Virus record (IMG/VR): IMGVR_UViG_3300037424_001177
Location: 64,001 to 128,000 of that record
DNA from: a virus
Strand: one strand, 5' to 3'
Length of the DNA stretch: 64,000 bases
Positions 11,242 to 59,741 of this stretch are shown one piece after another. The position numbers were made by a program, and so were the translations under genes. The notes beneath the pieces are model-generated. The model had not been told where the DNA came from and searched no databases. It saw only the letters and a program-made list of their open reading frames with translations. The first letter of the stretch is position 1. Each line of letters starts with the position of its first letter.

Positions 11242-11631
11242 ATGGCTGCGACATTTCGCAATCGGTCGGTACAAATCAACCAGGTCGTTTTTGATCAGGT
11301 TGACATCTTCAACTCGGACTTTTTCAATCCAGTCACCGGCCTCTTGCCAGCGAGCATCGGATTCACACTGACAGTCAACAATCAAGCTGTTGGTTGGACT
11401 CTAGTCGATGGTGTCGGCGTTGCAGATGGTTTGATCGTCGCAGGTTCAGTCTACTGGTCTGAGCTGCCTTCCTCAAGCTACGGGATCCGCTTTTTTCCTT
11501 CGTCTCTTGGTCGCTGGGTCCTCGATTTTGCTTTTGCGCCGTCTCCGTCGCAAAAGATCATGTTGGGGTTTGACGTTGTGAATTTGCCGACCTTCGTTGA
11601 ACAAGGTCTCCGTTCCAGTTTCTGTGTGTGA
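11242..11631 (+). CDS. Hypothetical virion protein
   Basis: 129 aa, beta-rich, ends ...SSFCV*. Confidence 0.65.
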   Translation: MAATFRNRSVQINQVVFDQVDIFNSDFFNPVTGLLPASIGFTLTVNNQAVGWTLVDGVGVADGLIVAGSVYWSELPSSSYGIRFFPSSLGRWVLDFAFAPSPSQKIMLGFDVVNLPTFVEQGLRSSFCV

Positions 11632-11640
11632 GGTGTTGTT

Positions 11641-11681
11641 GTTTCAATTTATCCGCCATCTCACAATGAGGCGACGGAAAA
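11641..11681 (-). CRISPR. Solitary CRISPR-repeat-like unit, copy 1
   Basis: Minus strand TTTT-CCGTCGCCTCA-TTG-TGAGATGGCGG-ATAA-ATTGAAAC: hairpin plus canonical 8-nt handle. Homologous to 45180 and 59123. Confidence 0.6.
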
Positions 11682-11684
11682 CTC

Positions 11685-11713
11685 AACTTAGCAGAAGGAA
11701 TCTTGCGTCACAA
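11685..11713 (-). promoter_or_regulatory. Sigma70-type promoter driving repeat unit 1
   Basis: Minus strand TTGTGA (11713-11708), 17 bp, TGc, TAAGTT (11690-11685); same spacing in all three copies. Confidence 0.6.
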
Positions 11714-11751
11714 GCAACTCCTTCTTTCTGTGTCTGAAGAAGAGGAAACCT

Positions 11752-12639
11752 ATGGCACTTTTTGATGTGACTTCGGATGAGCTTGTTGGGGTTCTCGACG
11801 AACCTGCGTTCGATTTGTTGTCGACAGGCACGTCAACGTTCGACCGCCAACCTTCGGAAGATGAGGACGCGTCAACCGATACGTTGTTGGATGACTTGAG
11901 TTACGAGCGTGTTTTTGGCGACGTTGCCTCTTTGGATCCGGATACTACGGTAGGAAGCCTGGAGTATGGCAGATCTTCGGATGATACTGCGTCTCTCGAT
12001 CCTGACGTTCTTGTGTCTGCTTTGGAGTACGGCAGATCTTCGGACGATGTGTTGTCGTTGGATCCAGACCTGATCGCTCTTGCCGCAGAGTACCAATACA
12101 CGTTAGGGGACGCCGCAGTTGTCGTCGACACCGTCACGGCTGGTCTTACACAAGAAAGCACGTCGACAGACAACATGTCGACTACTGACACTGTCTCGGC
12201 TGTGACAGAGCTGGGACGCGTTGTTTCGGATTCCGCGTTGTTGGCGGATTCAGTGGCTTACGCGATCGACGTCGCGTTGACACTTTCAGATGCGGTTACC
12301 GTTGCTGAGTTTTTAGCCGCGGGTCTCATCAAAGACGTCTTTCCTCAAGACTCAGTTGCTGCGTCAGATGAAACAAGTACAGCAGCTGCCTACGATCGGG
12401 ATCCAGTGCTCGACGTGTTCACAACTTCGGACGAGACGTATTCGTGGGTCAACGGGATCTTGTCAGCGACGCTTACAGGCGAAGCTGATTTGACTGCGAT
12501 CCTGGTCAAGCGACGACCGCCCCCGGCATTCACAAATGCTGCCCCTGCGCGAACGCAAGTGATCCCGCGGACGCAACCTGAGACGATTGAGCATTTCGTC
12601 GTCAATCCCGCACCTCCACGTCGACGCGAAGACCGCTGA
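11752..12639 (+). CDS. Acidic Ser/Thr-rich repeat virion protein
   Basis: GAGG RBS; ~20-aa periodic D-x5-D motifs. Confidence 0.7.
   Translation: MALFDVTSDELVGVLDEPAFDLLSTGTSTFDRQPSEDEDASTDTLLDDLSYERVFGDVASLDPDTTVGSLEYGRSSDDTASLDPDVLVSALEYGRSSDDVLSLDPDLIALAAEYQYTLGDAAVVVDTVTAGLTQESTSTDNMSTTDTVSAVTELGRVVSDSALLADSVAYAIDVALTLSDAVTVAEFLAAGLIKDVFPQDSVAASDETSTAAAYDRDPVLDVFTTSDETYSWVNGILSATLTGEADLTAILVKRRPPPAFTNAAPARTQVIPRTQPETIEHFVVNPAPPRRREDR
11929..12069 (+). repeat. Intragenic 63-bp tandem repeat
   Basis: SLDPD at 11929, 11992 and 12055 with LEYGRSSDD repeated. Confidence 0.85.
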
Positions 12640-12684
12640 CGATTGTTCAGCCGGTGTTCTAAAGAGCACGGCAAAGGAGAATAC

Positions 12685-14592
12685 ATGGATACCTCGGATG
12701 TGACCGGCACGGTCACGGCGGACAGGGCTGCCTTGGATGCAGCTATGGCAGAGCGTCAGGCACGTCTGGCTAACTCCCCGGATCTTTGGAACCGTCTTTG
12801 GAAAGACAAGGATCAAGAGGAGTGGCGTAAACAAGCGTTGAGTCAAGTTTACACGAGGATTGAACGCATTCTTCCGTACCATACCCGTGTCGTAGATCTC
12901 GGTGGCGGTACAGGGGTTTTGGGAGCACGTCTTAGAGATACCCGAAAAGCCAGCGTCCTGGTTGTTGATCACAGTACGGAGGCTTTGCAGCAAGCTAAGG
13001 AAAAAGACCTCGAGACAGTGGTCGCGGACTTGAATCAGGAATCTGAAATCCGTCGAGTGCTAACAGGTCGCGCCTTGGTTGGTACCAACGGTGACTTGAT
13101 GCACCAAGAGCCCCCAGCAATAGTGATAGCGACAGAGTTCGTCGAGCACATGAGTGCTGAGACGCGGGCCTTGATCTTCAAGTTGGCGGCTCAAGAGGGA
13201 CGAGCGTTGCTCTCGGTACCGAATGATCGTTTAGGTCCTGATGAAGAACCTCAGCACACCGTGAAATACAATGCCATGAGCTTCAAGCGTGACTTGGCAC
13301 AATACTTCAAAGATGTGCGAATCGAGGTACTCGGCCCGTATTTGTTAGCGGTCTGCGGTTTCCCTAAGCCGTTCACATTGTCTGTGACGATGCCTGTTCG
13401 TGACGAGGCTGAGGACCTCGAAGCAACGCTTGCAAGCTTTCGCGGAGTCGCTGATGAGATGGTGATCGGAATCGATCCGAGAACTGTCGACAACACACGA
13501 GAGATCGCTGAGAAGTACGCAGACGTAGTATTCGATTTGGATCAGCCTTCAGGCCCGCCGAAGATGGGTACAGGTGAGCTGAGCGAGCCAGATCAATCAG
13601 TTTCTGAAGAAGAGAAAATCCAAAAGCAGATCCATTTTGCGTGGGTTCGCAACCAGTGCTTGGATCACTGCACGTCTGACTGGATTTTCATGACGGAAGG
13701 TCATGAAAGATTGATTTCAGGCTTTGAAGCATTGCTTGGGCTTGATCAGCTGCCGAAGGGCGCGAAAGTTGGCGTTGTTTTTCGTACAGGTACAGGTCAA
13801 CGGTGGGTGTTTCCTTGGCTCTGTCGTAACGACCCGAAGATTCGCTACACACGCGGGACACACAACACATTGGACTATCCGCCGGATTATCTGGCGATCA
13901 CACTGCCGCAGGTTCAAACCTTACATGAACGTGCAAAGGATCGTGAGCTGGCGCGACAGAAGCAGCGGAAGGTACAGAACCGCAAGTCGTTGATGGACGA
14001 TTGGGTCACAAATCACAACGAGAACTCGTTACACTATTTGGGTGCTGAGTGGCGAGAGCATGATCCAAAGCGTGCGATTGCACGACTCGAAGAGTTCTTG
14101 TCGTTGCCACCCAAGAACGGACCTCTTCGATATCACACACGACTGGTGCTCGCGAAGCTCTATACTCAAGAGCAGCAGTGGGGGAAGGCCAGAGAGGCGT
14201 TGATCCGCGCCACTGAGGACGACTGGAGTCGTACTGAGCATTGGCTTCGTCTCGGAGATTTGGCTTACATTGCCGAGCGATACGAAGAGGCACTGGCTTT
14301 TTATCTCTACGCTTCGACCACGATAGGCACTCCCCCCTTCACAATCTGGTGGATCGACATGGCTAGCTATACTTGGCTGCCGTGCCAGCGACTGGCCACT
14401 GTTTTTGCCGAATTGGGGAAGCTTGACGAAAGTCTTTATTACGCCCGCAGAGTGTTAGAGCTGCTTCCAGACGATGCCGAATCCGTGGCGTTCGAGGAGG
14501 CGCAAGCCAATATCAAATTGTTGGAGGAAACACTCAATGCAGCCCATCGAAGCAACGGAGACCCTGACGGCCCGCGGGATCTTCACAGTTGA
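12685..14592 (+). CDS. SAM-dependent methyltransferase / GT2 glycosyltransferase / TPR fusion protein
   Basis: VVDLGGGTG (SAM motif I); LSVTMPVRDEAEDL...GVADEMVIG...DNTREIA...FAWVRN (GT2); C-terminal TPR-like helices. AAGGAG RBS before ATG 12685. Confidence 0.85.
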   Translation: MDTSDVTGTVTADRAALDAAMAERQARLANSPDLWNRLWKDKDQEEWRKQALSQVYTRIERILPYHTRVVDLGGGTGVLGARLRDTRKASVLVVDHSTEALQQAKEKDLETVVADLNQESEIRRVLTGRALVGTNGDLMHQEPPAIVIATEFVEHMSAETRALIFKLAAQEGRALLSVPNDRLGPDEEPQHTVKYNAMSFKRDLAQYFKDVRIEVLGPYLLAVCGFPKPFTLSVTMPVRDEAEDLEATLASFRGVADEMVIGIDPRTVDNTREIAEKYADVVFDLDQPSGPPKMGTGELSEPDQSVSEEEKIQKQIHFAWVRNQCLDHCTSDWIFMTEGHERLISGFEALLGLDQLPKGAKVGVVFRTGTGQRWVFPWLCRNDPKIRYTRGTHNTLDYPPDYLAITLPQVQTLHERAKDRELARQKQRKVQNRKSLMDDWVTNHNENSLHYLGAEWREHDPKRAIARLEEFLSLPPKNGPLRYHTRLVLAKLYTQEQQWGKAREALIRATEDDWSRTEHWLRLGDLAYIAERYEEALAFYLYASTTIGTPPFTIWWIDMASYTWLPCQRLATVFAELGKLDESLYYARRVLELLPDDAESVAFEEAQANIKLLEETLNAAHRSNGDPDGPRDLHS

Positions 14593-15025
14593 AGTCATTC
14601 GTTCCGGAAAGCACGGGCCAAAGGTCGTTCAGCGTCGGACCGCGTTGAACTTGGTCGTGAATACTGGCAAGCGCCAAATCTGGCGCCAGGCCACAGGCCT
14701 GAACGCTAACGACTTCGATCAGATGAGGATCGGAACGTCGGGTGTGGCGGCTAACAGCGGTCACACGAACGTGGTTTCGCCGGTGACGGGTACTCTCAAT
14801 ACCGTTGACAGCAAAACCCTTTTGGCGGCCACCAGGACGTTCCAGTGGGTGATCTCGTATGCTTCCGGCGCAGGTACGAAGTCGGCGACCAACATCCGTG
14901 AGGTCGTTGTGCTGAACCAGAACACGAGCCCCGGTGGTTCGGCTTTGTCGCGGTCTACGTTCACGGCAGTGAACAAGACTACCGCGGACAAGCTTAGAAT
15001 CACATATAGAGCACGCGTAACCTGA
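14537..15025 (+). CDS. Phage tail/baseplate-associated protein
   Basis: NLVVNTG...MRIGTSG...IREV...VNKTTADKLRITY pattern; related to 34058..34717. Confidence 0.7.
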   Translation: MQPIEATETLTARGIFTVEVIRSGKHGPKVVQRRTALNLVVNTGKRQIWRQATGLNANDFDQMRIGTSGVAANSGHTNVVSPVTGTLNTVDSKTLLAATRTFQWVISYASGAGTKSATNIREVVVLNQNTSPGGSALSRSTFTAVNKTTADKLRITYRARVT

Positions 15026-29940: not shown

Positions 29941-30171
29941 GTGGCGGACATTGACGGAGAACTCATTTCGTTCGGAGCAGGTGGTTTGGCACCACCGGGC
30001 ACGTTTCTGTACAAGATGAGGGCTATTGATCTGAACTGTGGGTCACTGACTTACAGAACTTGGCTCGCGCTTGATGAGCCTGATTTTACCGCAAGTCAGT
30101 TCAGCGGAACGCACTGCGGCGGGACGATCAACTTCTCCGACATCACTTTGTTGGCGGTCATTAGCGTATAA
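29941..30171 (+). CDS. Hypothetical protein
   Basis: GGAGG RBS; TAATG overlap with next gene. Confidence 0.6.
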   Translation: MADIDGELISFGAGGLAPPGTFLYKMRAIDLNCGSLTYRTWLALDEPDFTASQFSGTHCGGTINFSDITLLAVISV

Positions 30172-32612
30172 TGGCTGGGTACGGCGGCATAGGCTGGGGA
30201 GGCGGTGCTTGGGGGGACTCGGGCGCTGGGGAAGTCGCTGAGCTGTTCGACATCGAGATCGATGAAACGATCTCGATCACAGAAACAATCGAAGGGATTG
30301 TCCCACTTCGCGTAGTTTCTGCTGCGTCCTCTGCGTCGACGCTGGTCGTTATCGAGTTCTCCAGACCGCTCAACATTGCGTACCCTCCGCTCGTCAATCC
30401 GGCGAACTACACGATCCCTGGATTGTCAGTCACAGGGGCGGTTGTACTTGATTCGACGCATGTCCGACTCAACACATCGTTTCAGCTGGCGATTCTCTAC
30501 GTCGTCACCGTTACCGACGCTCAAACCACAACCGGCGTTGATTTAGGAACGGATGATTTTGCGTCGTTTGTCGGATTCTCAATTGGAACGACGACCTTTT
30601 TTGTCGGGGCTCAGGCTCTGTCGAAAATTGAGTTCGTGTTTTCGAACCCGATGTTGGTGAACGCAGCATTCACCAACACAGGAAACTACACGATACGGAC
30701 CACGACTGGTGGAGCTGTAATCCCGGTTTTGACCGCGACTGTTTCAGGTCCTCTGCCGATCCAACGACTCACACTCACTCTTGGCGCTGAGCTGAACTCC
30801 AAAGAGTACTACGCAGCGATCATCAGTACTGTCGTCAAAGATGTTCTGAATCAAGCTGTCGTCAACGATACCGACATTTTTCAGTGGGCAGATGCGACCG
30901 AGGCTATTGCAGTCTCTCCGCTTGAGATCCCCATCGAAAACTTTTCTGGTGAGGTCACAGGCGGGATCTTGGGTGATCCTGCTGGGCTTGTTTTCTTCTC
31001 GCCGGCTCTTGAGGCAGTTTCGAATCCGTCATTCATTGACGTGGAGGACGTATCTGTCTGCACTCGTGCTTACGACGAGTATCACTTTCCTGATCCCCCA
31101 GATCCGGAACCGTTGTTCACGTGGCGTCCTGGGATCACAAGTGTCATTGGCACTTCCGTTGTCTGGGCGCCGTTTGATCGGTTAGGTCAAGCTCGCATAG
31201 AGCTGCACCCACAGCACGCGAACGACGCGTTGCCTCCGATCTATGATTTTGCGATCTCCGACTTTGGTTCGATGATCACCGATACGCCGGTCGACGCGAT
31301 ACTTGGAGAACCGATCGATGTTTCACGTGGAGGGTTTCTCAACGATCCTCGTTTCGTGACATTTGGCTCCCAGAACGTCGCACAAGTGTCTGGCACGAAC
31401 GTCACCGTCGACAACACGCTGCTGGCTCTCGACGCGGTCACTGTCGAGCGTATTACTCCGAGCTTCACGACTGTGTGGGCAGGAGCACTGCCTCAATCGT
31501 TTCGAGCCCTCGACAATCTAACGCCAGTTGGTCCTGGACCGACGGTAACGCAACGGCTCTACTGGCCGGACATTCGTCATTTGTACGACGATGTAGCAGT
31601 CGACGATCAAGTGGTCATCAACATCTTGGAATCCTTTGCACAAGATACGATTTCGATGGTCGACCAGACGACAGTCCTCTCTTCGGGCGCAATTGTCGTT
31701 GAAGTAGAAGACGTCGTCAGCATTGTAGATAGTGTCGTCGCAGGGTTGACTTTGTTGGTTAGTGTCTCCGACACATTGTCCGTAACAGACACAGTCGCCG
31801 CTGGCCGGGAGATTGGGGCCACACTCACGGACACGATTGCGCTCACAGACACCGTGATCAGGGGCTTCGAGTACGACAGATCCAACAATGACACAGCAGT
31901 GGTTGTGGACTTTACGTGGACGCAGGCACCTGTTCAGTTGCACGACACAACGTTCAGTCCAGTCGGGTTGTGGCAGTTCCAGAATGACCTCACTGACAGT
32001 AGCGGCAACGGTTTCAGCCTAACTGTCGAGACCGGTAGCGAGCGTTACACAGATATCTTCCCAGGGGTCCGCGGTTTCAAATTCGATGACTTGACGGGTC
32101 TAATTTACAACGTCGCGGAAGCAACGCTTGCGATCACAGGGGATCTCACGATTGAGATGTTGTTGAATCTACAGGCTTACACGAGTCTTCGGAATTTGGT
32201 GAGCCACGCAGGTACTTTCGGTAGCGGGGCATCAGCTGACAATGCTTTCTACTGCATGCAGGTTTTGGACGCGACAGGAGAGTTTGGATACCTCCAAGAG
32301 TCTGGGTCAGGGGCAGACTCCGCCGTCACGTACAGTACGGATCGTCCGCCTTTGAACAATCTGTGTCATCTGGCGTTAACTAGAATATCCCAGGTCATAC
32401 GCCTCTACATTGACGGAGTTTTGATCGCTACGTCTGGGACGTTGACGACACCGGATGGTGGAACGAGTGGGCGTTTCCGTGTGGGTGTCTCGACGCAACG
32501 AGCCCCTGATTGCGATGTCGCGTCCTTAAAGGTGATCGCGTCCGGGTTGTCAGGACCGGACATCGTGTCCGAGTACAACAGAACACTTGGTCGATTCTAC
32601 GGAGAGATTTGA
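30171..32612 (+). CDS. Virion protein with Ig-like domains, D-x5-D repeats and C-terminal LamG domain
   Basis: GYGG.GWGGGAWG N-terminus; PVGLWQF.NDL.DSSGNG...LTIE...SGRFRVG. Confidence 0.8.
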   Translation: MAGYGGIGWGGGAWGDSGAGEVAELFDIEIDETISITETIEGIVPLRVVSAASSASTLVVIEFSRPLNIAYPPLVNPANYTIPGLSVTGAVVLDSTHVRLNTSFQLAILYVVTVTDAQTTTGVDLGTDDFASFVGFSIGTTTFFVGAQALSKIEFVFSNPMLVNAAFTNTGNYTIRTTTGGAVIPVLTATVSGPLPIQRLTLTLGAELNSKEYYAAIISTVVKDVLNQAVVNDTDIFQWADATEAIAVSPLEIPIENFSGEVTGGILGDPAGLVFFSPALEAVSNPSFIDVEDVSVCTRAYDEYHFPDPPDPEPLFTWRPGITSVIGTSVVWAPFDRLGQARIELHPQHANDALPPIYDFAISDFGSMITDTPVDAILGEPIDVSRGGFLNDPRFVTFGSQNVAQVSGTNVTVDNTLLALDAVTVERITPSFTTVWAGALPQSFRALDNLTPVGPGPTVTQRLYWPDIRHLYDDVAVDDQVVINILESFAQDTISMVDQTTVLSSGAIVVEVEDVVSIVDSVVAGLTLLVSVSDTLSVTDTVAAGREIGATLTDTIALTDTVIRGFEYDRSNNDTAVVVDFTWTQAPVQLHDTTFSPVGLWQFQNDLTDSSGNGFSLTVETGSERYTDIFPGVRGFKFDDLTGLIYNVAEATLAITGDLTIEMLLNLQAYTSLRNLVSHAGTFGSGASADNAFYCMQVLDATGEFGYLQESGSGADSAVTYSTDRPPLNNLCHLALTRISQVIRLYIDGVLIATSGTLTTPDGGTSGRFRVGVSTQRAPDCDVASLKVIASGLSGPDIVSEYNRTLGRFYGEI

Positions 32613-33311
32613 GTGGCCGGCGCAGTCAATCTACACACAACGCTCCACAGTCCTGCGGGCCTGTGGCAGTTGCAAAACGATCTCCTCGACAGCTCAGGTA
32701 ATGGGCTGACTTTGACAGCCATTGCAGGCACGGCGCGTTACACAGACATTTTCCCAGGAGTTCGTTGCTTGTTTTTGGATGCCTTAACGACTTTTGGGCG
32801 AAGTGCTTTCACAGCGTCCTTGAATATCTTGGGGGATCTGACGATTGAGTGCCTGCTCTACGTTATCACGAACAATGTGACTACTGGCGTTGTGTCACAC
32901 GGCGCTTCTGGAGAGACGGAAGCGACGAACTATTCTTATGCAACGCAGTTCACCACAACTACCTTCCAGTACCTTCACGAGTTCAGTGCAGGGACCAACC
33001 AAACATTGGTCACCACAAATTTACCGCCCCGCAGACTCTCTCATCTGGCTCTTGTCAGAGCGTCCAACGTTGTTCAGTTTTACTTAAACGGCCGTACATT
33101 TGGAGCTGCGTCTGGCACTCTTACAGCACCAACGGGCAGTACGAGCGGTCGATTTCGAATTGGGGCTTCCGAGGGTTTAGGCACTCCTGGCGGTACAGGA
33201 GTGCCTAACATGATTTCATCCGTCAAGGTGATTGCAAGCGCTCTTACTGAGGCACAGATCAAGGCTGAATACAACCTGACATTGGGATCTTTTTTTGGGT
33301 TCGTAAACTGA
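32613..33311 (+). CDS. Stand-alone LamG-like domain protein
   Basis: Paralog of the C-terminal domain of 30171..32612. Confidence 0.8.
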   Translation: MAGAVNLHTTLHSPAGLWQLQNDLLDSSGNGLTLTAIAGTARYTDIFPGVRCLFLDALTTFGRSAFTASLNILGDLTIECLLYVITNNVTTGVVSHGASGETEATNYSYATQFTTTTFQYLHEFSAGTNQTLVTTNLPPRRLSHLALVRASNVVQFYLNGRTFGAASGTLTAPTGSTSGRFRIGASEGLGTPGGTGVPNMISSVKVIASALTEAQIKAEYNLTLGSFFGFVN

Positions 33312-33323
33312 TTCGGTGGTCAT

Positions 33324-34007
33324 GTGGCGTTGATACAGAGACACGGCTTACACCACAACCCCGTTGGGTTGTGGCAGTTCGACGGGGACTTGAATGACAG
33401 TTCTGGAAATGGTTTTACGCTAACTGTTGAGTTTGGAGCAGTTCGTTACACCAATATCTTCCCTGGGATTCGGGCTCTTCTGATTATCAATCCTCTTGGA
33501 TTGATTTACAACGTTGCTGAACCTGTGTTGCGGATTACAGGCAATCTTACGATCGAGATGTTGTTGCAACTGGCACCTGCGTATGAAACTGCAAAAGTGA
33601 TTTGCTCACATGGCGCGGCTGGTGAGACCGCTGAGACGAACTTTGCTTACCAAATCGACATGATGGCGGTGACGACGGCTAATATGGGTCTTTTCAGTGA
33701 GTCTGGGGCCGGTGTGAATGCCCTTTATGCGATCACGCCACGGCCGCCTTTGGCGCTTTGCCATTTAGCCGTGACCAGGATCTCCAATGTTGTTCAGTTT
33801 TACTTGAACGGAAGAACATTGGGGGCTGCTTCGGGCACGCTTACCACTCCGACTGATAGTACCAGCGGTAGGTTCAGAGTCGGTACTACGTCGTCAGGAT
33901 TCGCTCCTTCGAGCGTATTGTCTTCACTGAAAATCTTGAGTGCTGGGTTGACTTCTGCGCAAATTCTTGACGAGTTCAACCGCACTTTGGGGACCTTCAG
34001 CCCATGA
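33324..34007 (+). CDS. Stand-alone LamG-like domain protein
   Basis: Third tandem paralog (NVVQFYLNGRT.GAASGTLT.PT.STSGRFR.G). Confidence 0.8.
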   Translation: MALIQRHGLHHNPVGLWQFDGDLNDSSGNGFTLTVEFGAVRYTNIFPGIRALLIINPLGLIYNVAEPVLRITGNLTIEMLLQLAPAYETAKVICSHGAAGETAETNFAYQIDMMAVTTANMGLFSESGAGVNALYAITPRPPLALCHLAVTRISNVVQFYLNGRTLGAASGTLTTPTDSTSGRFRVGTTSSGFAPSSVLSSLKILSAGLTSAQILDEFNRTLGTFSP

Positions 34008-34729: not shown

Positions 34730-37357
34730 ATGGCAATCAAGGACTATGGGCCGGCCACGTCCGGGTATTTGGACCCTGCGGATCGTGCTTGGGAAACAGT
34801 CGTAATTCAGGCTGGAAAACCGATCCTTGATAAGGAACTCAACCTTGTACAAGATGTTGAGCAAGAAGCGGAGCTAGTCACCCGTCGCCGCTCCTTTCCT
34901 TCAGGGTGGATGTCGGACCAGTTTCTCAATGTAACTCAATCCGGTCTCTTGAACGCGCTCGTTACGACAGCCAACACGATCCAGCTCGCGACACAGCGTG
35001 CGCACGTCAATGGCTGGCTTGTCCACGTTGCCGATACAGGCGATGCGACAGAGTTGAACGTTTTGAGTCTTGGTGCAGGACCTGTCGGTGCTGGGACCAA
35101 ACGGACTGACCTCATCATTCTGGAGGTCTGGCGTCGTCTTATTCCTGCTGCTCCTACAGCGACCGGGAAGAGTCCAGCAGCGAGGATCTGGCGCTACGGA
35201 AACGTCAAGATCCCGTCGGCTAGCGACTTGGCGCTGAACTTCGCTGACGACATCTTGGACGGAGCTGTAGGGTCTGAAACCACGAAGCGCGTTCAGATCC
35301 AGTATCGACTCCGCGTCATCAGTGCAGTCGATCTGTTCACCTTTCCTAACGGTATCGACGATCCGACTGTCGTGGCTAACACTGTGCCGGCCACGGCTGC
35401 GGCTCCTGACGGAACGGCTACGATCTACACGTATACGAATCAGTCTTCGCTGGGCGACCCTGGTCTTTGGCGAACCGGCAATGGAGACCCAACCAACACA
35501 CTAGGCACGGTCGACGGTTACATGTACGCGTTGCCTTTGTGCGCTGTGTTTCGACGCAACACGACGGCTTTTGCAAGAAACACAAACCACAACGGCGGTG
35601 TAGCGTTTCCTGGTCCTTCGGACCGTCCGGACAGTTTGTTCAGCGACAACATCGTTGCCAGGGACATTCTCGACTTGCGGTTTGGTACGTCGCCAACTGG
35701 TTGGGATCTGCAAGAGGTAGCGCAACGTAACTTGCACCTCTTGCTCGACAACCAAATCCAAACTGAGATTGGTGCAACGTTGTTGGGTGGGGGTCTTCAC
35801 GGGCACACTGTCATGTGGGCCGATGAAATCGGAGTGTCGAACGCGAACGGCGGTGACGGAACGACGACGGGTGACACCCCGGGCGCAGAATTCATTGGCG
35901 AGTTTGACGCCGTACGCCGAACATTTTCGGACCGCACGATCTACGAAACGATCGTTTTGAGGTTTACGCCGGCAGACGGCTCGGGCGGTGGCCCTAGCTG
36001 GGCGGACGGAGACACCATCACTATCTCGCCGTCTGCGCTGCCCATTTGGCCATACACAGCATTCAACTGGACAGCTTTTGCCCCATCCACGATTTCGTTC
36101 GTAGACATCGTCCGTGTTGCGTACCTTGGTGAATCATTGGGACAGAATTCCGTCAATGTTACGACGGACACAACGTCGCCTCGTTGGAGCATTGAGGGCC
36201 TCGGTAGTGTTCCACAGGGCGCTCTGACGTTTCGGATTCACACAACGATCGGTGGGGCATCACCCATCTACATTTCGGTTCTCATCGCGTATCCGTCCGG
36301 AGCCGGCCTTTTTCGTACACCAACAGCTATTTTTGCAAACAATGCTGTTCTTCCAACTTTGCAAGGTGTGTTCATCAACAACCCTGCACAACTTCCAGCT
36401 GGATCTCCGATTCTTTACAGTGCTCTCCAGATCCCGACTTTCAACACACCGAACCGTGAAGTGTCGTTGTCCTATACGACTGTTTCGCATTCTAGGACGT
36501 TCTTCTCGACTTCAACCACGACAACGATCGCCCTGCCTGAGCGTGCAATCACAGGCACGGTTTCCATCTCACAAGCTCCGGGCGGTCCTTACGGTGGTTC
36601 CATCACGGTCTCGAGTGATGGGTACCTTCTGACATTGAGCCCTGCGGTTGGCGGGGGTGGCGTCACTGTCACCGTCACCTACCAGTCGATCCGTCCATTG
36701 CCGCAGAATGACGAGCAGCTGACCGTCTACTACGAGGCGCGTTTGCCGCAAACAGTACGCGAAGCTCTGCTCGGTACGAGTTTGAGTTTGATCCCTCGAC
36801 TGGTCACACAAGATGTCTACGCGTTGACTGCGGGGAGTGGTAGTGATGGCCAAGGTTACCCGTTTCCGTCTGCGTACGTCCAATCAGGGGGCGTTTACCC
36901 GACATCCGGCGGCACGTTTACAGGGGATCACGAACTTGACGGCGCTCTGCGTGTATCCGTAACCACGTTGTTTGCGGATACGGGTTTTCTACGTCTCCCT
37001 GCACACGTGCCCGTTGTTCCCTTGCCTGACGACTTTGTGTTCAGCCGCGTCCCAGGGGATGTCGACGCAGAAGGACGTACCTTTTTCAAGGCTTTGACTA
37101 GCGCGTATAAGCCGTTGGGCGTCGCGCAGCCACTGAGCGACCCGAAGCGTCACAAGAACTTTTTGCCAATCCTTTGTGAGTTGTCCGTCGACACTCCGTT
37201 TGGGTTCAAGGGCGAACTTGTGCTGCTCTTGCTTACGAGATGGGCTTCTTTCGATGACGAAAACACGATCGCTTTCATGTCGAGTCTTGTATCGAACCGT
37301 TCGAGCGCCAGCGTGTACAAGCTCAAGGGACAACTGCTAGGCAATCGTAGGAGCTAG
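34730..37357 (+). CDS. Large baseplate/tail protein (paralog of 39997..44052)
   Basis: Shared Q.GKP.LD.E.N, VNGWL, D...LEVW, RYGNV, ETT.RVQ.QYR.RV, GLWR.G.G, LG.VDGY.YA.P...VFRRN, RPD.LF.D.I...DILDLR. Confidence 0.75.
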   Translation: MAIKDYGPATSGYLDPADRAWETVVIQAGKPILDKELNLVQDVEQEAELVTRRRSFPSGWMSDQFLNVTQSGLLNALVTTANTIQLATQRAHVNGWLVHVADTGDATELNVLSLGAGPVGAGTKRTDLIILEVWRRLIPAAPTATGKSPAARIWRYGNVKIPSASDLALNFADDILDGAVGSETTKRVQIQYRLRVISAVDLFTFPNGIDDPTVVANTVPATAAAPDGTATIYTYTNQSSLGDPGLWRTGNGDPTNTLGTVDGYMYALPLCAVFRRNTTAFARNTNHNGGVAFPGPSDRPDSLFSDNIVARDILDLRFGTSPTGWDLQEVAQRNLHLLLDNQIQTEIGATLLGGGLHGHTVMWADEIGVSNANGGDGTTTGDTPGAEFIGEFDAVRRTFSDRTIYETIVLRFTPADGSGGGPSWADGDTITISPSALPIWPYTAFNWTAFAPSTISFVDIVRVAYLGESLGQNSVNVTTDTTSPRWSIEGLGSVPQGALTFRIHTTIGGASPIYISVLIAYPSGAGLFRTPTAIFANNAVLPTLQGVFINNPAQLPAGSPILYSALQIPTFNTPNREVSLSYTTVSHSRTFFSTSTTTTIALPERAITGTVSISQAPGGPYGGSITVSSDGYLLTLSPAVGGGGVTVTVTYQSIRPLPQNDEQLTVYYEARLPQTVREALLGTSLSLIPRLVTQDVYALTAGSGSDGQGYPFPSAYVQSGGVYPTSGGTFTGDHELDGALRVSVTTLFADTGFLRLPAHVPVVPLPDDFVFSRVPGDVDAEGRTFFKALTSAYKPLGVAQPLSDPKRHKNFLPILCELSVDTPFGFKGELVLLLLTRWASFDDENTIAFMSSLVSNRSSASVYKLKGQLLGNRRS

Positions 37358-45018: not shown

Positions 45019-45216
45019 GTTTCAATTTTTATTGGCCATTCGAAGGATGACGGATAAAGCTTAACCACTTTTAGCACCTGTTTTTTCAATTTATCCGCTG
45101 TCCTTGTCACCGGGGCCCGATAAAGCGTCTGAGGAGTCACCACGTCAGGACCGTCTATCCGATATTGGTACTCGTTCCAGTTTCAATTTATCCGCTGTCC
45201 TAAGACCAACGGAAAG
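45019..45216 (-). CRISPR. Degenerate mini-array: repeat (45180-45216), ~74-nt insert, partial repeat (45084-45104), ~31 nt, degenerate repeat (45019-45057)
   Basis: Minus strand CTTT-CCGTTGGTCTTAGGACAGCGG-ATAA-ATTGAAAC. 21-nt exact direct repeat at 45084-45104 and 45181-45201; third unit ends ATAAAAATTGAAAC. Confidence 0.6.
45106..45181 (-). repeat. Diverged copy of the 3' end of the adjacent lipoprotein gene (45280-45355)
   Basis: Ungapped alignment, 68/76 identical. Confidence 0.95.
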
Positions 45217-45219
45217 ACC

Positions 45220-45248
45220 AATTTAGCAGAGTGGTCTTTCCGTTGCAA
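45220..45248 (-). promoter_or_regulatory. Sigma70-type promoter with overlapping 14-bp inverted repeat
   Basis: Minus strand TTGCAA (45248-45243), 17 bp, TGc, TAAATT (45225-45220). Perfect IR CAACGGAAAGACCA (45207-45220) / TGGTCTTTCCGTTG (45232-45245). Confidence 0.65.
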
Positions 45249-45260
45249 GTGTTGAACACT

Positions 45261-47798
45261 CTAGAACGCCTGGTACGTAGTCACTGGGGCCCGATACAGC
45301 GTCTGAGGAGTCACCACGTCAGGACCGTCTACCTGATACGGGTATTGGTTCCAGTAGCCCCAGCTCAGCCAGTACACGTAGTCGTCGTCAGCGACATCGG
45401 CAATGACCGCGTAGGCTTGGTGCGAATACCCTGTCCAATAGCCGCTCGTGAAGTTTCTCGTGTCCAGGTATTGATAGTTTGTGTAGATCAGGTCGCCTTT
45501 GCTGAACTGGTACTCGCTACCGACCCCGAGGCTTCCTGTGGTTTGAAAATGCAACAGATCGGCTGTCGCGTCCTCGGGGTAGGCGCCGAAGATGAAGTAT
45601 TTGTTGTCGGAGGTCGCGATGATTTGGCCCGACTCCATTCTGATCAAGTCGACAGGCCAGTGCAGAGGTTGACCTGTAACAAGGAAACCATTTTCGTTGA
45701 TGTATGTGGCGGAGAACGCTAACGAGGTCTCGTTTTCGATGGTTGACGGTATCGGCGAGGGGCCCGTCGTCGAGTGCTTCAACAACCCTGCGACGTAGGA
45801 AGGTTGGACGTTCCAGTAGTAGATGAAGTCTTCGTCGACGACAATTTTTGGTGGTATCCACCAAGTACCTGTGATTGCGAAGACGACTTCTCCGTACGAC
45901 AGTGAATCAATTGGCGCACGGTAGAACGTCACGGTTCTGAACGGGTAGCCGATCGGATCGCAGCCATTGCCAACCCCGTAACACGGTCCTTCCTGGTCCT
46001 CGTTGTGCCAGTAAACGTGTGTCGAGTTCTTCGTGAGGCGCTGGACTAAGCGTCCACTATAGACTTGCGTGCAGTTGAGCGGATCTGGAATCGTTGTCGC
46101 GCAGCGTATGATTTCGGACGTATTGGCGCCGTTAGAGACTGATCCTTTGATGATGTACAGGTGTTGCCCAGCCGCTAATATGCCGCCGATGCCAGTGTTG
46201 ATGTCGAAACTCGTGATGAGTTCGGACGCGCTTCCGTCCTTGGGCATTTTTCGAACAATGGCTTGATTTGCGTCGTAGTCGTATTCGGAGGTGTAGAGGT
46301 TGTTCTCGTCTTGGGTCAGACCTTGCCATCCACTGCTCCCCCCACCTGGATGGACCGCAATCGGTTCGATCCCCGGGTACTCGCAGGTCCCGTTGAGGCA
46401 TTGGCCGCCGTTGCACGCGAGCCCACACACGCCGCAGTTCGTGTCGTCGTTCTGGATGTTTGTTTCACATCCGGGAGCGGCCGTGCAGTCAGCGAAACCT
46501 TGGATGCAGGTGAAGCCGCATCCTTCGACGGCGCCGACACAAATTGGATCAGCGTTCTCGGGTGTCGCCGTGCAAGCGTCGCCACACGACGTGCAGTTGG
46601 TCGAAGAGCCGAACGTGGTTTCACATCCTGGAGCAGCCGTACAGTCGGCGAAGCCAGTCACACAGGCGGTGCTACACACGCCAGCCCCTGAGCAGATTGG
46701 CGCCGTGTTCGGATCGACCGGACACGAGACGATCGAGCCCCATTCTCCCGTAGCGTCGCAAGTCTCAGTCGCAGAGCCACTGCAACGCATCGTCCCTGGC
46801 TCACAGTTGCCCGTACAGGCTCCGTTCAGGCAGGCGTAGGGGCAAGTTGTCGTTGGCGGCTGCCAAGCCCCCTGGGTGTCACAAGATTCGATTCCGAGCC
46901 CGGAGCAACGTAGGTCTCCTGGCTCACACGTCCCGGCACAGACGCCGTCACCGTCGCAAGCGAATTCACAGTCAGTGTCCGGGATCCATTCCCCGTTCGA
47001 GTCACAAACTTCGACGGTCGGCCCTCCGACACATCGCTTGGTTCCGGGGATGCATTCCCCGGTACAGGAGGCCGTGCCCGATTCCTCTTTGCACACGAAG
47101 TCACAAATGTTGGTCTGGACAAATAGACCTTGTCCGTCACACAAGGCAGTGATCAGGGTCATGGTCAGGTCGGGAACTTGTAGGCACGCGTTGGTCCCAG
47201 GCACACATACGCCTGTACATGCACCGTTTTCGCAGCCGAAGGGACATGATTCAGTAGACCATTGTCCGAAGGCGTCGCAGATCTCGTGTTCCCCTGTGTT
47301 GAGCGTACAGCGAGCGTCTTCGGGAACACACTCACCGATGCATCCGAATTCGTTGTCACAGGCGAACGGACACGTTTCGGTTGGGATCCATTCCGAGCCG
47401 TCTTGGCGACAGGATTCGAACGCGGAGCCGTTGCACTGGGTCGTGCTTGGTTCGCAAAATGTCGTCGCAGGTGAGCCAGCTGTTCCTGTTCCTCCGATGC
47501 CAGTCACTCCTGCGCTTCCGCCAGGGGAGCTGCCACCAGATCCACCAGAACCGCCTAGGTTATCGGCACCCGCGTCTGGCTCAGGTGTGGTGACGGGATC
47601 CGTTCCACTTTGAGAGCCTCCAGAACTTGCGTTTATAGCGGGCTCGAGTTCGGGCGGAATAGGGGCGGAACCCGGTATGCCGATTTGCTTCGGCCCGTAG
47701 AGGCTTTCTCCGCAACCTGCGACAGCGAGCAAGATCGCGAATAATGTGCCAAATCTGGACGGGCAGGTCTTCCGGTTACCTTTGAAGTCGTGTACCAT
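45261..47798 (-). CDS. Cys-rich repeat lipoprotein with C-terminal beta-propeller-like domain (myxobacterial style)
   Basis: Lipobox LAVAGC, GGSGG linker, repeated C.PG..RC...E.C...G.W...C.F.C..G.C.G units, GFADC...PGCET repeats, D...VYW propeller blades. Confidence 0.8.
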   Translation of the reverse strand: MVHDFKGNRKTCPSRFGTLFAILLAVAGCGESLYGPKQIGIPGSAPIPPELEPAINASSGGSQSGTDPVTTPEPDAGADNLGGSGGSGGSSPGGSAGVTGIGGTGTAGSPATTFCEPSTTQCNGSAFESCRQDGSEWIPTETCPFACDNEFGCIGECVPEDARCTLNTGEHEICDAFGQWSTESCPFGCENGACTGVCVPGTNACLQVPDLTMTLITALCDGQGLFVQTNICDFVCKEESGTASCTGECIPGTKRCVGGPTVEVCDSNGEWIPDTDCEFACDGDGVCAGTCEPGDLRCSGLGIESCDTQGAWQPPTTTCPYACLNGACTGNCEPGTMRCSGSATETCDATGEWGSIVSCPVDPNTAPICSGAGVCSTACVTGFADCTAAPGCETTFGSSTNCTSCGDACTATPENADPICVGAVEGCGFTCIQGFADCTAAPGCETNIQNDDTNCGVCGLACNGGQCLNGTCEYPGIEPIAVHPGGGSSGWQGLTQDENNLYTSEYDYDANQAIVRKMPKDGSASELITSFDINTGIGGILAAGQHLYIIKGSVSNGANTSEIIRCATTIPDPLNCTQVYSGRLVQRLTKNSTHVYWHNEDQEGPCYGVGNGCDPIGYPFRTVTFYRAPIDSLSYGEVVFAITGTWWIPPKIVVDEDFIYYWNVQPSYVAGLLKHSTTGPSPIPSTIENETSLAFSATYINENGFLVTGQPLHWPVDLIRMESGQIIATSDNKYFIFGAYPEDATADLLHFQTTGSLGVGSEYQFSKGDLIYTNYQYLDTRNFTSGYWTGYSHQAYAVIADVADDDYVYWLSWGYWNQYPYQVDGPDVVTPQTLYRAPVTTYQAF

Positions 47799-56201: not shown

Positions 56202-59115
56202 AGACGACGACCTCTTGAGTTTTTTGGGACTCGTCGAAACTCCCAAAAAATCCGAACCAAAAAAGGCAATGACTCCTATTGCGGTGGGAGGTAACGCCGA
56301 AGCATTTCTAGCGTTGCAGAACGACATTGCGGACAAGGTCAAAGAAACTTCTCTACGTAAACGGTGGATGAAGTTTCATCGTTTCACTTTGGTGAAGACG
56401 GTCGAGGAAGTTCGTGCTTTGGTAGACCGTGCGCTAGCACATGGCCGCTGTTCCCTGGATCTTGAAACTGGAGGATTCGACAACCGCATTGACTACGTCG
56501 ACGGGCGTCCGAGAACCAAACATCAAATTGTAGGGTACGCCATTTCAGTTCGCGGACACGGACACTACATTCCGGTGCGTCACCACTACGACGCCAATTA
56601 CGAGGAGCGTGACCCAAACGTTCCTGTTGAGTCCGTGGAGCAAGAGATCACACGACTTTGCCGAGCATCCCAACCTGTCTTGACTCCGGAAGGGTTAGCC
56701 GACGATCCGTTAGGATCAAAGGCAATACAAGAACCTGGAAAGGTCATCGTCTATTTCGCCAATGCCAAGTTCGACCAGGAGTTTCTGTACCCTGTTACCG
56801 GCATCGACTTCTGGCATCCGTCGAGCTTTGAAGACGCGGAGCTTGCGATTTATGCTGTGCACTCTGACGCTGATCTCGGCTTGAAGGACAACGCTCTACG
56901 GTTTCTCAAGATCAAAGACCCTGAGACGAAGGAATACGTCCCGTATGAGATGATCAACTACGACGAGCTGTTTCCTCCCAACACGCCTCGTAGGGAGCGC
57001 AAGATTGCCACGCGCTATCCTGACGACGACAGTGACATCGTCGTCTACGGCTGCTCGGATGCTATTTGCACCGAATTGCTTTGCGAGCATCGCAAGACGG
57101 ATTGGGAACACACGCAGCCCGGTCTGGAGTATGATTATCGGGAGGTCGTCAGCGCTGTCATCGAGTCCAAGTACACGTTCACGTATCGTCTGGAGAAACA
57201 GACTGTACAGGTGATTCGTGTCATGGAGCGAAACCGCTCCAAGATTGATCGGGCAGAAATCCAAAGACTGTTAACTGAGGCTGAGGCCGAACTAGCGACG
57301 TTACTGACGGAAATACGAAAGGTTGGGATAGCGCGTGACAGGACCTTGTTCGCGGAACTGAACCCAGGATCGCCGAAGCAATTGTCGGATTTCTTGTTCT
57401 CGGAAAGAGGACTTGATCTAAAACCGAAACCGAATTTCACGGAGGCTAAGCAGCAATACGAGACCAACGCCAAGGTCCTCGAGAAGCTCGGTGACGCCCC
57501 AGGGGCCTCTAAGGTCCTGACCGACATCATCAAGTACAAGCAAATCGACAAGATCAAGGGCACCTATCTACAGGGGATGTTGGATACGTGTGATGACCAG
57601 GACCAACTGAGGTACAAGTTCAATCAGTTGGGGGCCATCACAGGTCGATTTACTGCACCCCAAGGTGATACTAGCGACGGCTACGCGGGAATCCCAATTC
57701 AGGGGATCCCTGTTCGAGACGATCCCAAAAAACCCAAGGTCGCACATTCGCTGCGGCGAGCCTTCATCGCACGTGACGGCTACACCTTGGTGAAGTGCGA
57801 CTACTCAGGGCAAGAGCTTCGAATTTCCACCAATCTGTCTGGCGAGGACGTGTGGATCAATGAGTTTTTGCACGGCACTGGCGATATCCATACGATCACA
57901 GCCAAGAACATCTTCGGTCCACACATCACCAAGAAAGATGAAGTCGAGCGAGACAAAGGCAAGCGCGTCAACTTCTCCATCTTGTATGGAGGTGGGATCA
58001 AGGCTGTTCAACGGAACGCAGGATGTGCGGAGCATGACGCTGCTCGCTGGATCGAACAGTTCCTAGCGGGGGTGCCCAAGATAGAGCAATGGATCAAGAA
58101 GCAACACGCGTTTGTCAAAGCCAACAAGGGTGTCTATTCGGCATTCCGTCGTTGGATTGAGGTTCCTGGTGCGGCCATCAAAGAGGGGGATCTTTCGTGT
58201 CAACGGTGTGGGCACTGTTTTACCCCGAAGAAAGCTGAGACAGAACCTTGTTCAAATTGCGGAGAGAAAATACGTCTAGCCGTAATTGACAAGAAAGAAG
58301 CCTGGTCAAGAAAGGGCTCAGCCGAACGCGAGTCCGTTAACTACCCTGTGCAGGCCACAGGAGCTGACATCATGAAAGTTGCTTTGGTGCTCCTCACTAA
58401 AGCATTTCGCAAGCTCAATTGGGACCGGTATTACGATCAGAATTGGAACCAACTCGGAGACGACCGGGTTCGTATGATTCTGACAGTGCACGACGAAATC
58501 GTGTTCGAGATCAAGCATCAACATTTGATGGAGGTGATTCCTGTCGTCATTGAGCTCATGGAATATCCGAGTCAGCTGCTACAATGGAAAGTCCCTTTAG
58601 TTGTCGATGTCTCACTGGGCCTGAACTGGGGCAGCAAGATCGCGTGGGACAAGGTGATTTCCAAGAAGACCCCTGTGCCAGAGTGGCTGGTGGAGTTCGT
58701 GACTCCAGACGCTTTGCCTGAGAAGATACCAGCCGGTCTACCACTGGTCCCGACGATTTCGTCAACTGCGACGACTTTTACTCCGCCTGCTGCTTCTGTC
58801 TCGACGGTTCGTGCCGCGTCGCCGGTAGACCCCTTGCCAAAGACCGCGACAAATGGTATCCAAAAACCAGTCGCGAAAAAAATTGCTCGATTCGTACTGT
58901 GCCAGACGTACCTCACAGAAGCTTCTGTGAGACTGACCTATGAGGCGGTGGCTGGATCGCTCCAACCTGGAGGGGATGTGTTATTGTGTCTGGTCGATCA
59001 GCACGATAACGTGCTGATCGACCCTTTGGAGAAACCGATACCGATTGACCCTGTATGTTTTGGTCACAAGATGGCGGATCGCGGGTTGGGTCCTGTAACT
59101 TACGTGCTGACTTGA
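56191..59115 (+). CDS. polA: Family A DNA polymerase with 3'-5' exonuclease
   Basis: ExoI DLET, ExoII NAKFD, ExoIII YGCSD; TGRF; motif A DYSGQELRI, motif B R..GK.VNFSILYG, motif C TVHDEIV. Confidence 0.95.
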   Translation: MASEDDDLLSFLGLVETPKKSEPKKAMTPIAVGGNAEAFLALQNDIADKVKETSLRKRWMKFHRFTLVKTVEEVRALVDRALAHGRCSLDLETGGFDNRIDYVDGRPRTKHQIVGYAISVRGHGHYIPVRHHYDANYEERDPNVPVESVEQEITRLCRASQPVLTPEGLADDPLGSKAIQEPGKVIVYFANAKFDQEFLYPVTGIDFWHPSSFEDAELAIYAVHSDADLGLKDNALRFLKIKDPETKEYVPYEMINYDELFPPNTPRRERKIATRYPDDDSDIVVYGCSDAICTELLCEHRKTDWEHTQPGLEYDYREVVSAVIESKYTFTYRLEKQTVQVIRVMERNRSKIDRAEIQRLLTEAEAELATLLTEIRKVGIARDRTLFAELNPGSPKQLSDFLFSERGLDLKPKPNFTEAKQQYETNAKVLEKLGDAPGASKVLTDIIKYKQIDKIKGTYLQGMLDTCDDQDQLRYKFNQLGAITGRFTAPQGDTSDGYAGIPIQGIPVRDDPKKPKVAHSLRRAFIARDGYTLVKCDYSGQELRISTNLSGEDVWINEFLHGTGDIHTITAKNIFGPHITKKDEVERDKGKRVNFSILYGGGIKAVQRNAGCAEHDAARWIEQFLAGVPKIEQWIKKQHAFVKANKGVYSAFRRWIEVPGAAIKEGDLSCQRCGHCFTPKKAETEPCSNCGEKIRLAVIDKKEAWSRKGSAERESVNYPVQATGADIMKVALVLLTKAFRKLNWDRYYDQNWNQLGDDRVRMILTVHDEIVFEIKHQHLMEVIPVVIELMEYPSQLLQWKVPLVVDVSLGLNWGSKIAWDKVISKKTPVPEWLVEFVTPDALPEKIPAGLPLVPTISSTATTFTPPAASVSTVRAASPVDPLPKTATNGIQKPVAKKIARFVLCQTYLTEASVRLTYEAVAGSLQPGGDVLLCLVDQHDNVLIDPLEKPIPIDPVCFGHKMADRGLGPVTYVLT

Positions 59116-59122
59116 CGCCATG

Positions 59123-59161
59123 GTTTCAATTTATCCCCCATCTAACGAAGACGACGGAAAA
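59123..59161 (-). CRISPR. Solitary CRISPR-repeat-like unit, copy 3
   Basis: Minus strand TTTT-CCGTCGTCT-TCGTT-AGATGGGGG-ATAA-ATTGAAAC. Cassette flanked by the 11-bp direct repeat TGACGCCATGG. Confidence 0.6.
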
Positions 59162-59164
59162 CTC

Positions 59165-59193
59165 AACTTAGCAGAAGTAATCTTTCGTCACAA
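59165..59193 (-). promoter_or_regulatory. Sigma70-type promoter driving repeat unit 3
   Basis: TTGTGA (59193-59188), 17 bp, TGc, TAAGTT (59170-59165). 59152-59203 is 50/52 identical to 11672-11723. Confidence 0.6.
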
Positions 59194-59216
59194 GCAACTC
59201 CTTACTTTCTGACGCC

Positions 59217-59741
59217 ATGGCGAAGCAAGACTACCTCCGGCTCTGCAACGACCACAATGTCTCTCACGAGGACTTCACGTTGCAGTTCTGTTCTCGTTGT
59301 CAGCAGGCGGAGTGCTCTCGCAGTCAGCATGGAAGATCCAGATTTGATCAGCGCGTCCTCTCCTGGGAGAGTCGTCTCTTTACGGGGGTGTCTCGCATGT
59401 CCCAAGACGACAGCCGGTACTCTGAAATCACGGCCAAGCATTTTGTCGAGGTCGAGCAGCCCAGATCAGAGTGGGTGGATCCTAGGGAAGTCCCTTCCAC
59501 GACGACTATCTCGATTCCTGCGCCCAATGTACATACTGACGTTTCGGAACCTGAACCGGTTGTACAGGTGACCGACCTTGACCCGGTTGCACGGATCCCC
59601 AGTTACAACACACCTGTGCGCCAAGGCCAAATGATCGGCACGCCGATAACAACGCCGAGCGTCAAGGCTGATCCGTGGGAAGCCCCAATCAAGAGCAATG
59701 AGCGGATTGTGAAGCCTGGAGCCAAGATTAGGTTTCAGTGA
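59217..59741 (+). CDS. Hypothetical protein with N-terminal Cys cluster
   Basis: C...FCSRC...CSRS followed by a Pro-rich tail. Confidence 0.7.
   Translation: MAKQDYLRLCNDHNVSHEDFTLQFCSRCQQAECSRSQHGRSRFDQRVLSWESRLFTGVSRMSQDDSRYSEITAKHFVEVEQPRSEWVDPREVPSTTTISIPAPNVHTDVSEPEPVVQVTDLDPVARIPSYNTPVRQGQMIGTPITTPSVKADPWEAPIKSNERIVKPGAKIRFQ

Follow-up and report, generated by a model that had tools for sequence, protein, structure and literature searches.

A dispersed cassette that joins a promoter-like block to one CRISPR-like repeat occupies different sites in two related huge-phage genomes

We analysed 64,000 nucleotides of viral DNA (the window: bases 64001–128000 of a 159,228-bp IMG/VR virus contig, named G000; 53% G+C). 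The window carries a dispersed cassette of 80–90 bp in which a promoter-like block is followed by a single class 1 CRISPR-like repeat. Further copies lie elsewhere in G000 and in its relative G001, and copies 1 and 3 of the window and two G001 copies, whose sites are empty in the other genome, are recent insertions. The interpretation that we favour, and hold tentatively, is that the cassettes are mobile solitary repeat units making CRISPR-mimic RNAs, which, like the RNA anti-CRISPRs (Racrs), would act as decoys for a class 1 system of the host.

An initial annotation of the sequence had placed three such elements in the window; we confirmed all of them and fixed their exact extents. On the minus strand each cassette runs in the order left end, -35-like hexamer (TTGTGA or TTGCAA), 17-nt spacer ending in TGC, -10-like hexamer (TAAGTT or TAAATT) and repeat unit, which is the layout that had been claimed. 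The left end of copies 1 and 3 is a short GAAAG(T)AAGGAG. The repeat unit is 37–42 nt long, starts 6–7 bases past the -10-like block, has the form GYYTTTCCGT..stem..CGG (repeat pattern CCGTCG..CGGA(T/G)AAATTGAAAC) and closes with the tail ATAAATTGAAAC. Copy 1 (11641–11728, 88 bp) scored 87.9 bits with R1, a covariance model of the whole cassette, and 53.3 bits with R3, a model of the repeat alone; its TTGTGA lies at 11708–11713, its TAAGTT at 11685–11690 past the 17-nt spacer, and its repeat, ending in ATAAATTGAAAC, at 11641–11682. Copy 2A (45180–45260, 81 bp; R1 80.4 bits, R3 48.6 bits) stands directly 3' of the TAG of an 845-aa gene, with TTGCAA at 45243–45248, TAAATT at 45220–45225 and the repeat at 45180–45216. 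Copy 3 (59123–59209, 87 bp; R1 89.1 bits, R3 58.5 bits) is located between the DNA polymerase stop and the ATG of the following gene; its -35-like block, -10-like block and repeat occupy 59188–59193, 59165–59170 and 59123–59162. The spacing between copies inside the window is 14–34 kb. Copies 1 and 3 share 95% identity over 55 nt despite a separation of 47 kb. The 13-mer GGATAAATTGAAA occurs exactly four times in the window, always on the minus strand, and with ≤2 mismatches there are seven matches vs. 0.97 expected by chance. Most copies are antisense to both neighbouring genes, and insertions at gene boundaries leave both neighbours intact.

On the cassette strand the hairpin of the repeat unit has a folding energy of −11 to −17 kcal/mol, vs. 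−2 to −10 kcal/mol on the opposite strand. A U·G pair was found in 7/7 copies and a G·U pair in 5/7, both of which would mismatch on the other strand; the earlier proposal of a minus-strand hairpin with G-U pairs is thus upheld. The eight-pair stem had 93% of cells paired, compared with 20–52% when the partners were slid. Two stem pairs show compensatory changes, and covariation is modest (n = 7 sequences; 10/500 shuffles reached the observed score). The stem base and the 12-nt tail are constant across copies, and the stem tops, loops and upstream blocks vary. A promoter or terminator role on the plus strand was considered and rejected, because the plus-strand hairpin is weak and is not followed by a T-run. 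On the cassette strand we predict a promoter from the exact spacing and the conservation across copies, the hexamers matching the consensus at 4/6 and 3–4/6 positions. The block TGCTA(A/G)(A/G/T)TT occurs six times on the G000 minus strand (five of these are cassettes) and never on the plus strand. It is therefore a part of the cassette and not the general promoter of the phage.

G000 represents about one third of a complete genome by the CheckV estimate. Pattern scans of IMG/VR returned a sole relative, the 301,550-bp contig G001 with direct terminal repeats, which is ∼90% identical to G000 overall (mostly 80–96% along the alignment). G000 is collinear with G001 positions 109,790–274,727 in reverse orientation. 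The comparison used the entire G001 sequence, and the cassette family is known from these two genomes. Megablast gave no close relatives among GenBank phages, and the G000 DNA polymerase is <32% identical to any GenBank phage protein. The lineage is a huge phage of roughly 300 kb.

The covariance-model scan that had been suggested in the initial annotation detected eight clear copies, extending beyond the window, with R3 scores of 48–58 bits. Five are in G000 (the three in the window and those at contig positions 7124 and 142991) and three in G001 (174283, 268529 and 271865); nothing comparable was found elsewhere in the 460 kb scanned with the models. Two pattern scans of IMG/VR for further copies gave G001 only. 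Once both genomes are oriented alike, 8/8 clear copies lie on one strand. The uniform orientation claimed earlier therefore holds for these copies but not for a diverged candidate unit of 23 bits in G001, which is on the opposite strand and runs directly into an ATG. Another candidate, a degenerate unit near the G001 end, scored 28 bits. A promoter-less repeat-like unit is present in both genomes (L049:10982-11020, minus strand, 41.6 bits; L044:5399-5437, plus strand, 29.6 bits). The 41.6-bit unit sits antisense within the acidic C-terminal region of a 264-aa open reading frame (ORF), and this promoter-less unit may be due to chance or very old. At window positions ∼7440–7500 on the minus strand, a 15-nt stretch (CCCTGCTAGGTTGGG) is shared with the -10 block of the contig 7124 cassette, but the hairpin after it is a different one, CGTGG..CCACG. 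G001 conserves this arrangement near 204235; it could represent a cassette that has been remodelled or a further small RNA gene.

Only one intact cassette is found at the same site in both genomes (G000 7124, corresponding to G001 268529). Base-level alignment showed that the orthologous G001 site of copy 1 carries no cassette, and that at the copy 3 site G001 has the stop-CGCC-ATG junction once, likewise without a cassette. G000 in turn has neither of the cassettes found at 174283 and 271865 in G001; the first (G001 174203–174283) replaces the 16 nt found at window positions 37342–37357, at the stop codon of an 875-aa gene. At the contig 142991 site, G001 holds just the 3' half of a cassette. 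This insertion is therefore older than the split of the two genomes, and part of it was later deleted. In G000 the cassette at 142991 splits a minus-strand gene within its 5' end, after codon 8, and the reading frame starts again at the TTG-AAA of the repeat tail.

The DNA past the repeat had been reported to have a copy on the far side of every cassette, and this was borne out for some of the copies. At copy 3 the flank repeat is 10 nt, exact, and abuts both cassette ends (CATGGCGTCA on the cassette strand): the right copy (59113–59122) includes the polymerase TGA and the left copy (59210–59219) includes the ATG of the next gene, and the 10-mer occurs once in G001. The repeat at contig 142991 (17–18 nt) is also exact and abutting, and that at copy 2A spans 76 nt with 68/76 identical. 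Copy 1 has a 13-nt direct repeat (12/13), but it is offset by 13 nt and leaves no match at positions 1–13 of the guide that had been proposed. Its downstream copy (11619–11631) includes the TGA stop of the upstream plus-strand gene and lies 9 nt from the repeat end, 5 of these being filler bases that are not in G001; the upstream copy (11725–11737) overlaps the GAAAG left end of the cassette. The shared old copy at contig 7124 has an 8-nt repeat at an offset of 25 nt. The two copies present only in G001 have no flank repeat, and 16–20 nt of target are replaced. In four copies the right edge is base-exact, with target DNA beginning immediately past GAAAC or GAAAT.

We take the flank matches to be target duplications left by insertion, because the empty alleles hold the sequence once. 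The sharp repeat-side ends, the variable duplication length and the occasional filler or loss of target suggest that the cassettes spread by a duplicative, imprecise mechanism, consistent with template switching or with staggered breaks. Duplication lengths that vary from 0 to 76 nt do not agree with a transposase of fixed stagger. Searches of G000 and G001 for a reverse transcriptase, Y1 transposase, Cas1 or Cas3 HD domain were negative. The cassettes are also not the ends of a miniature inverted-repeat transposable element or a larger transposon, since they lack terminal inverted repeats, their duplications range from 0 to 76 nt, and no longer element shares their ends in G000 or G001. Nor do they resemble guides of an orphan TnpB, another earlier suggestion: the sole TnpB is on the plus strand with unrelated ends, and the cassette is a single hairpin of ∼40 nt. 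This TnpB-only insertion lies outside the window (G000 contig ∼37747–38952, plus strand) and is absent from G001; the 384-aa protein contains OrfB_IS605 and Cas12f1-like_TNB domains (E 5e-24), and its closest homologue is 58% identical.

Site 2, at the end of the 845-aa gene (45261–47798, minus strand), has a more complex structure. On the minus strand the gene TAG is followed by cassette 2A, a 76-nt copy of the gene end, a 21-nt cassette end and a decayed unit. The orphan 76-nt copy (45106–45181) is 68/76 identical to its in-gene counterpart (45280–45355). The extra units that had been noticed at 45019 and 45084 are both present. Partial repeat B (45084–45104, minus strand) is the 3' arm and tail, 21/21 identical to 2A, without the promoter block and 5' arm. 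Decayed repeat C (∼45019–45059, minus strand; a weak match of 15.3 bits, E 7.6) has a decayed -10-like block upstream and ends 16 nt ahead of the ATG of the next minus-strand gene. The orphan copy is ∼93% identical to the G001 allele; the 845-aa gene and the in-gene copy are 73–80% identical to G001, and the DNA further on is ∼92% identical. These identities suggest an allele replacement in the 845-aa gene that ended at the cassette. Two histories fit the site, either a tandem duplication of 174 nt, after which a deletion occurred and the gene allele was replaced, or the import of a foreign allele together with a cassette, joined exactly at the repeat end. We rejected a CRISPR array or mini-array at this site (spacings of 97 and ∼65 nt, truncated and decayed repeats, and a self-derived 76-nt insert).

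The initial annotation had described the system as cas-less, which is not true of the lineage: its closest relative, G001, encodes a type I-C variant Cascade and an array of ∼33 repeats. A PADLOC scan of ORFs ≥150 aa identified Cas5c (E 2e-40), Cas8c (E 3e-23) and Cas7c (E 9e-51) in a locus with genes at G001 2668–8345, together with a helicase-like 793-aa protein, and the array at 8523–10870. No Cas1 and no Cas3 HD domain were found in this variant. The cas region is without counterpart in the G000 fragment, and there are no cas genes in the 159 kb of G000. The first 11 array repeats are identical, and the next ∼22 keep CAGG..CCTG and ATGATTTCAAC with differing stem tops; 94% of cells are paired with compensatory changes, and 0/500 shuffles reached the observed covariation. 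The array and the cassettes thus share a conservation pattern of invariant stem base and tail with compensatory changes at the top, and the cassettes are on the same strand as the G001 cas operon and array. No significant similarity was found between the array leader and the cassette. Comparison of the array spacers with G000 and G001 gave chance 12–14-mers only, so that no protospacer adjacent motif (PAM) was derivable. Among relatives of Cas7c, one identical protein occurs in another contig, and a 50%-identical locus (L212) has no cassette, the contig stopping before any downstream array. A gene for a small P-loop ATPase of 215 aa lies upstream of cas5c both in G001 and in the L212 relative. 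G001 also contains a solitary repeat of the array type at 298020–298057 (L046:18020-18057, minus strand; 43 bits, E 8e-9). It lies on the opposite strand to the array and a long way from it, and has a TGCTAAACT block ∼100 nt upstream. Beside cas operons, we observed arrays of 2–3 repeats that end in GGGTTCAAAC or GGGTTCCAAC at ∼70-nt spacing (L032:11349-11444, L212:7103-7274; minus-strand reading); these are candidate regulatory mini-arrays making RNAs that resemble CRISPR RNA (crRNA), of the CreR/CreA type.

The cassette repeat has a CRISPR-like layout, with a 5' GYTTTCCGT lead, a stem whose base is conserved and whose top is free, and a tail that finishes in ATTGAAAC, a handle common in class 1. 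Real arrays carry this 12-nt tail too, e.g., that of a Poribacteria metagenome-assembled genome beside Cas10/Csm1, and therefore it does not identify subtype I-C. The 5' GTTTCCGTC is likewise common to real arrays such as that of Pseudanabaena. Among the matches listed in a genome scan, the arrays of Poribacteria, Pseudanabaena, Dolichospermum, Beggiatoa and others share the tail (10–12 nt) or the lead only. Rfam gave no match in the window at the gathering threshold.

We infer transcription, Cas binding, the decoy effect and the mechanism of insertion as follows. Cassette-strand transcription would start a few bases ahead of the repeat and produce an RNA in which the G·U-containing hairpin leads into the 12-nt tail A(U/G)AAAUUGAAAC and, past it, the transcript of the adjoining downstream DNA. 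The conserved stem base and tail would be read by a class 1 repeat-binding endoribonuclease of Cas6 or Cas5c type, and the RNA, bound by the Cas proteins of a host class 1 system, would serve as a decoy like Racr. Within the phage genome the cassettes would multiply by duplicative imprecise insertion, usually with a short duplication of the target, not fixed in length, left behind. Since the array repeat of the phage itself differs, a class 1 system of the host is the likely partner. Among the alternatives listed in the initial annotation, a decoy anti-CRISPR RNA fits best.

Several results weigh against this interpretation. The array model, R2, matched no cassette, and R1 and R3 matched no array repeat, which places the two in different families. 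Arrays with a cassette-type tail reached just 15–19 bits with the repeat model, and none of the genome-scan matches listed was an array with the full cassette repeat; a metagenome scan for this repeat gave 35 chance hits and no array. A host Cascade that uses the cassette repeat is therefore hypothetical. An Rfam search of four cassette loci at E up to 10 returned no CRISPR-DR match and two off-cassette chance hits. The promoter read earlier in the upstream block stands as to spacing and conservation, but a sigma-70 consensus scan called no promoter at the cassettes, where the -10 matches the consensus at 3/6, and no terminator was called by scan past the repeat. At least at two places the tail doubles as the ribosome-binding region or start codon of a downstream gene, and it could have a translational role. 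To our knowledge, the described Racrs are not multi-copy or mobile.

The main rival, which we consider rather unlikely, is a selfish miniature element or a mobile promoter/regulatory cassette whose CRISPR likeness is ancestral or coincidental; it may locally drive, restart or antisense-regulate its neighbours as PeSL elements do. The rapid turnover between the genomes with target duplications, the gene-boundary insertions that spare both neighbours, and the failure to find a matching array among the scan matches listed agree with such an element, as do the TTG-AAA restart provided by the tail at contig 142991 and the copy that feeds an ATG in G001. PeSLs show that promoter and hairpin units can move in phages (PMC2839356, PMC4122927), but they recombine with each other to shuffle genes, and solo insertion with target duplication is not reported for them. 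The antisense position of most copies to both neighbours means that these cannot be the promoters of either gene, and G001 yielded no transposase, reverse transcriptase or Y1 enzyme. The tail and stem base are conserved while the tops, loops and upstream blocks differ, which argues for selection on an RNA or protein partner and not on DNA ends. A DNA-level site (a recombination joint or nick site at the repeat end), and not an RNA gene, is very improbable. It would account for the base-exact right edge in four copies and for site 2, where the repeat end joins the diverged allele (80% to G001) to resident DNA (92%). However, the G·U pairs and the strand-specific stability agree with RNA or, at the most, a single strand of DNA, and the conserved promoter-like upstream block would be left without a role.

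The initial annotation had instead proposed homing with the flank as guide: the tail would be a 5' handle and the adjoining phage DNA a guide, with which a Cascade, of the host or of the phage itself, would attack or bind those alleles of related phages that lack the cassette or have diverged. In a variant, Cascade would bind the short upstream duplicate in the style of a crRNA-like RNA (crlRNA), and movement of the repeat would replace spacer acquisition without Cas1. Both forms appear improbable to us. In their favour, a lineage Cascade without Cas1 or a Cas3 HD domain needs another source of guides and may act by binding alone, and the cassettes are on the same strand as the cas operon and array of G001. 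The first 10–18 nt past the repeat match the far side exactly at copy 3 and contig 142991, a match length that resembles the partial matches of CreA, CreR and Cracr RNAs (bioRxiv 10.1101/2024.10.29.618823), and site 2 has the look of a small array in which the 76-nt insert corresponds to a diverged allele. These matches are, however, explained by insertion, since the empty alleles carry the flank sequence once; at copy 1 filler is present and a seed match absent, and two copies are without a duplication. The trinucleotides upstream of the would-be protospacers in the empty alleles (CGA and TGC/TTG) and in the internal copies (CGC and ATC/TCT) share no motif and do not include the TTC of type I-C. 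The cassette repeat is outside the repeat family of the phage Cascade, no 3' repeat bounds a guide, and repair-based homing would not leave target duplications. Less probable again is that the cassettes are one-guide CRISPR genes for the nuclease-less, Cas1-less I-C Cascade of the phage. In that case a promoter and repeat moved beside new DNA would make this DNA the guide; the resident copy would be protected by the tail occupying the PAM place, and insertion-free related phages, or the short duplicate by the promoter, would be bound and silenced.

Two further features of G000 were recorded. Just outside the window there are 21 tRNA genes, clustered on the plus strand (L052:12191-19812, L053:1019-1947). 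In the window, 3–4 diverged tandem copies of a ∼700-nt coding unit lie at 31959–33883, across the genes at 30171–34007.

Solitary CRISPR repeats of phages are known as static decoy genes, and here a family of them acts as a mobile element. The two ∼90%-identical genomes differ at most cassette sites, with clean empty sites and target duplications kept. Should the RNA be a decoy, the phage would gain a new way to tune its anti-CRISPR dosage, through copy number and mobility; if the units serve the Cas1-less Cascade of the lineage, they would allow guides to be made without spacer acquisition. The G000/G001 pair supplies defined filled and empty alleles.

The cassettes can be compared with several known systems. 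A type I-C variant without Cas1/Cas2, and with a helicase instead of Cas3, was described in huge phages (Al-Shayeb et al., 2020, PMC7162821). The Cas5c/Cas8c/Cas7c/helicase set and array of G001 match this variant, which is background only, the cassette repeat being of another family. CreA, CreR and Cracr RNAs need ≥9 PAM-proximal pairs (Liu et al., bioRxiv 10.1101/2024.10.29.618823). Cracrs, which are defined through their similarity to host CreA/CreR, have a degenerate repeat and a short partial-match spacer, and they target host cas or toxin promoters for Cascade repression and not cleavage (bioRxiv 10.1101/2024.10.29.618823). Two cassettes similarly have matches of ∼9–18 nt beside the handle; unlike in Cracrs, the cassette flank matches only its own insertion site, is best read as an insertion scar, and has no PAM. 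Virus mini-arrays in interviral conflict carry ≥2 host-identical repeats and normal spacers matching other viruses (PMC11656645). The cassettes resemble them as a CRISPR component without nearby cas genes in a virus, possibly aimed at relatives, with a repeat-insert-repeat arrangement at site 2, whereas most cassette units have one repeat and the site 2 insert is a 76-nt copy of the adjacent gene end.

The PeSLs of T4-type phages are promoter-terminator motifs before genes, whose gene modules are shuffled by homologous exchange (PMC2839356, PMC4122927). Like them, the cassettes are short repeated promoter and hairpin units in a large phage, tied to differences between close relatives. In contrast to PeSLs, they insert alone, are mostly antisense, have target duplications and a CRISPR-type tail, and were not called as promoters or terminators by the consensus scan. 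The nearest known counterparts under the decoy reading are the solitary repeat units (SRUs), of which 2,103 were found in viral sequences, and which often follow directly on a predicted promoter; the subtype of the host is matched by 83% of prophage SRUs (PMC10651486). RacrIC1 was validated for type I-C, and RacrIF1 is another RNA anti-CRISPR (Camara-Wilpert et al., 2023, PMC10651486). Like an SRU or Racr, the cassette is a single CRISPR-like repeat that is intergenic, behind a promoter-like block and at a distance from cas genes, and its hairpin and handle would imitate a class 1 repeat. In the SRU sense, copies 1 and 3 and those at contig 7124 and contig 142991 are single and intergenic, and site 2 has extra partial units. 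Unlike SRUs and Racrs, the cassettes belong to a lineage that owns a Cascade of another repeat family, with no cognate array among the scan matches listed, and they occur in at least eight copies per lineage with insertion polymorphism, target duplications and differing stem tops.

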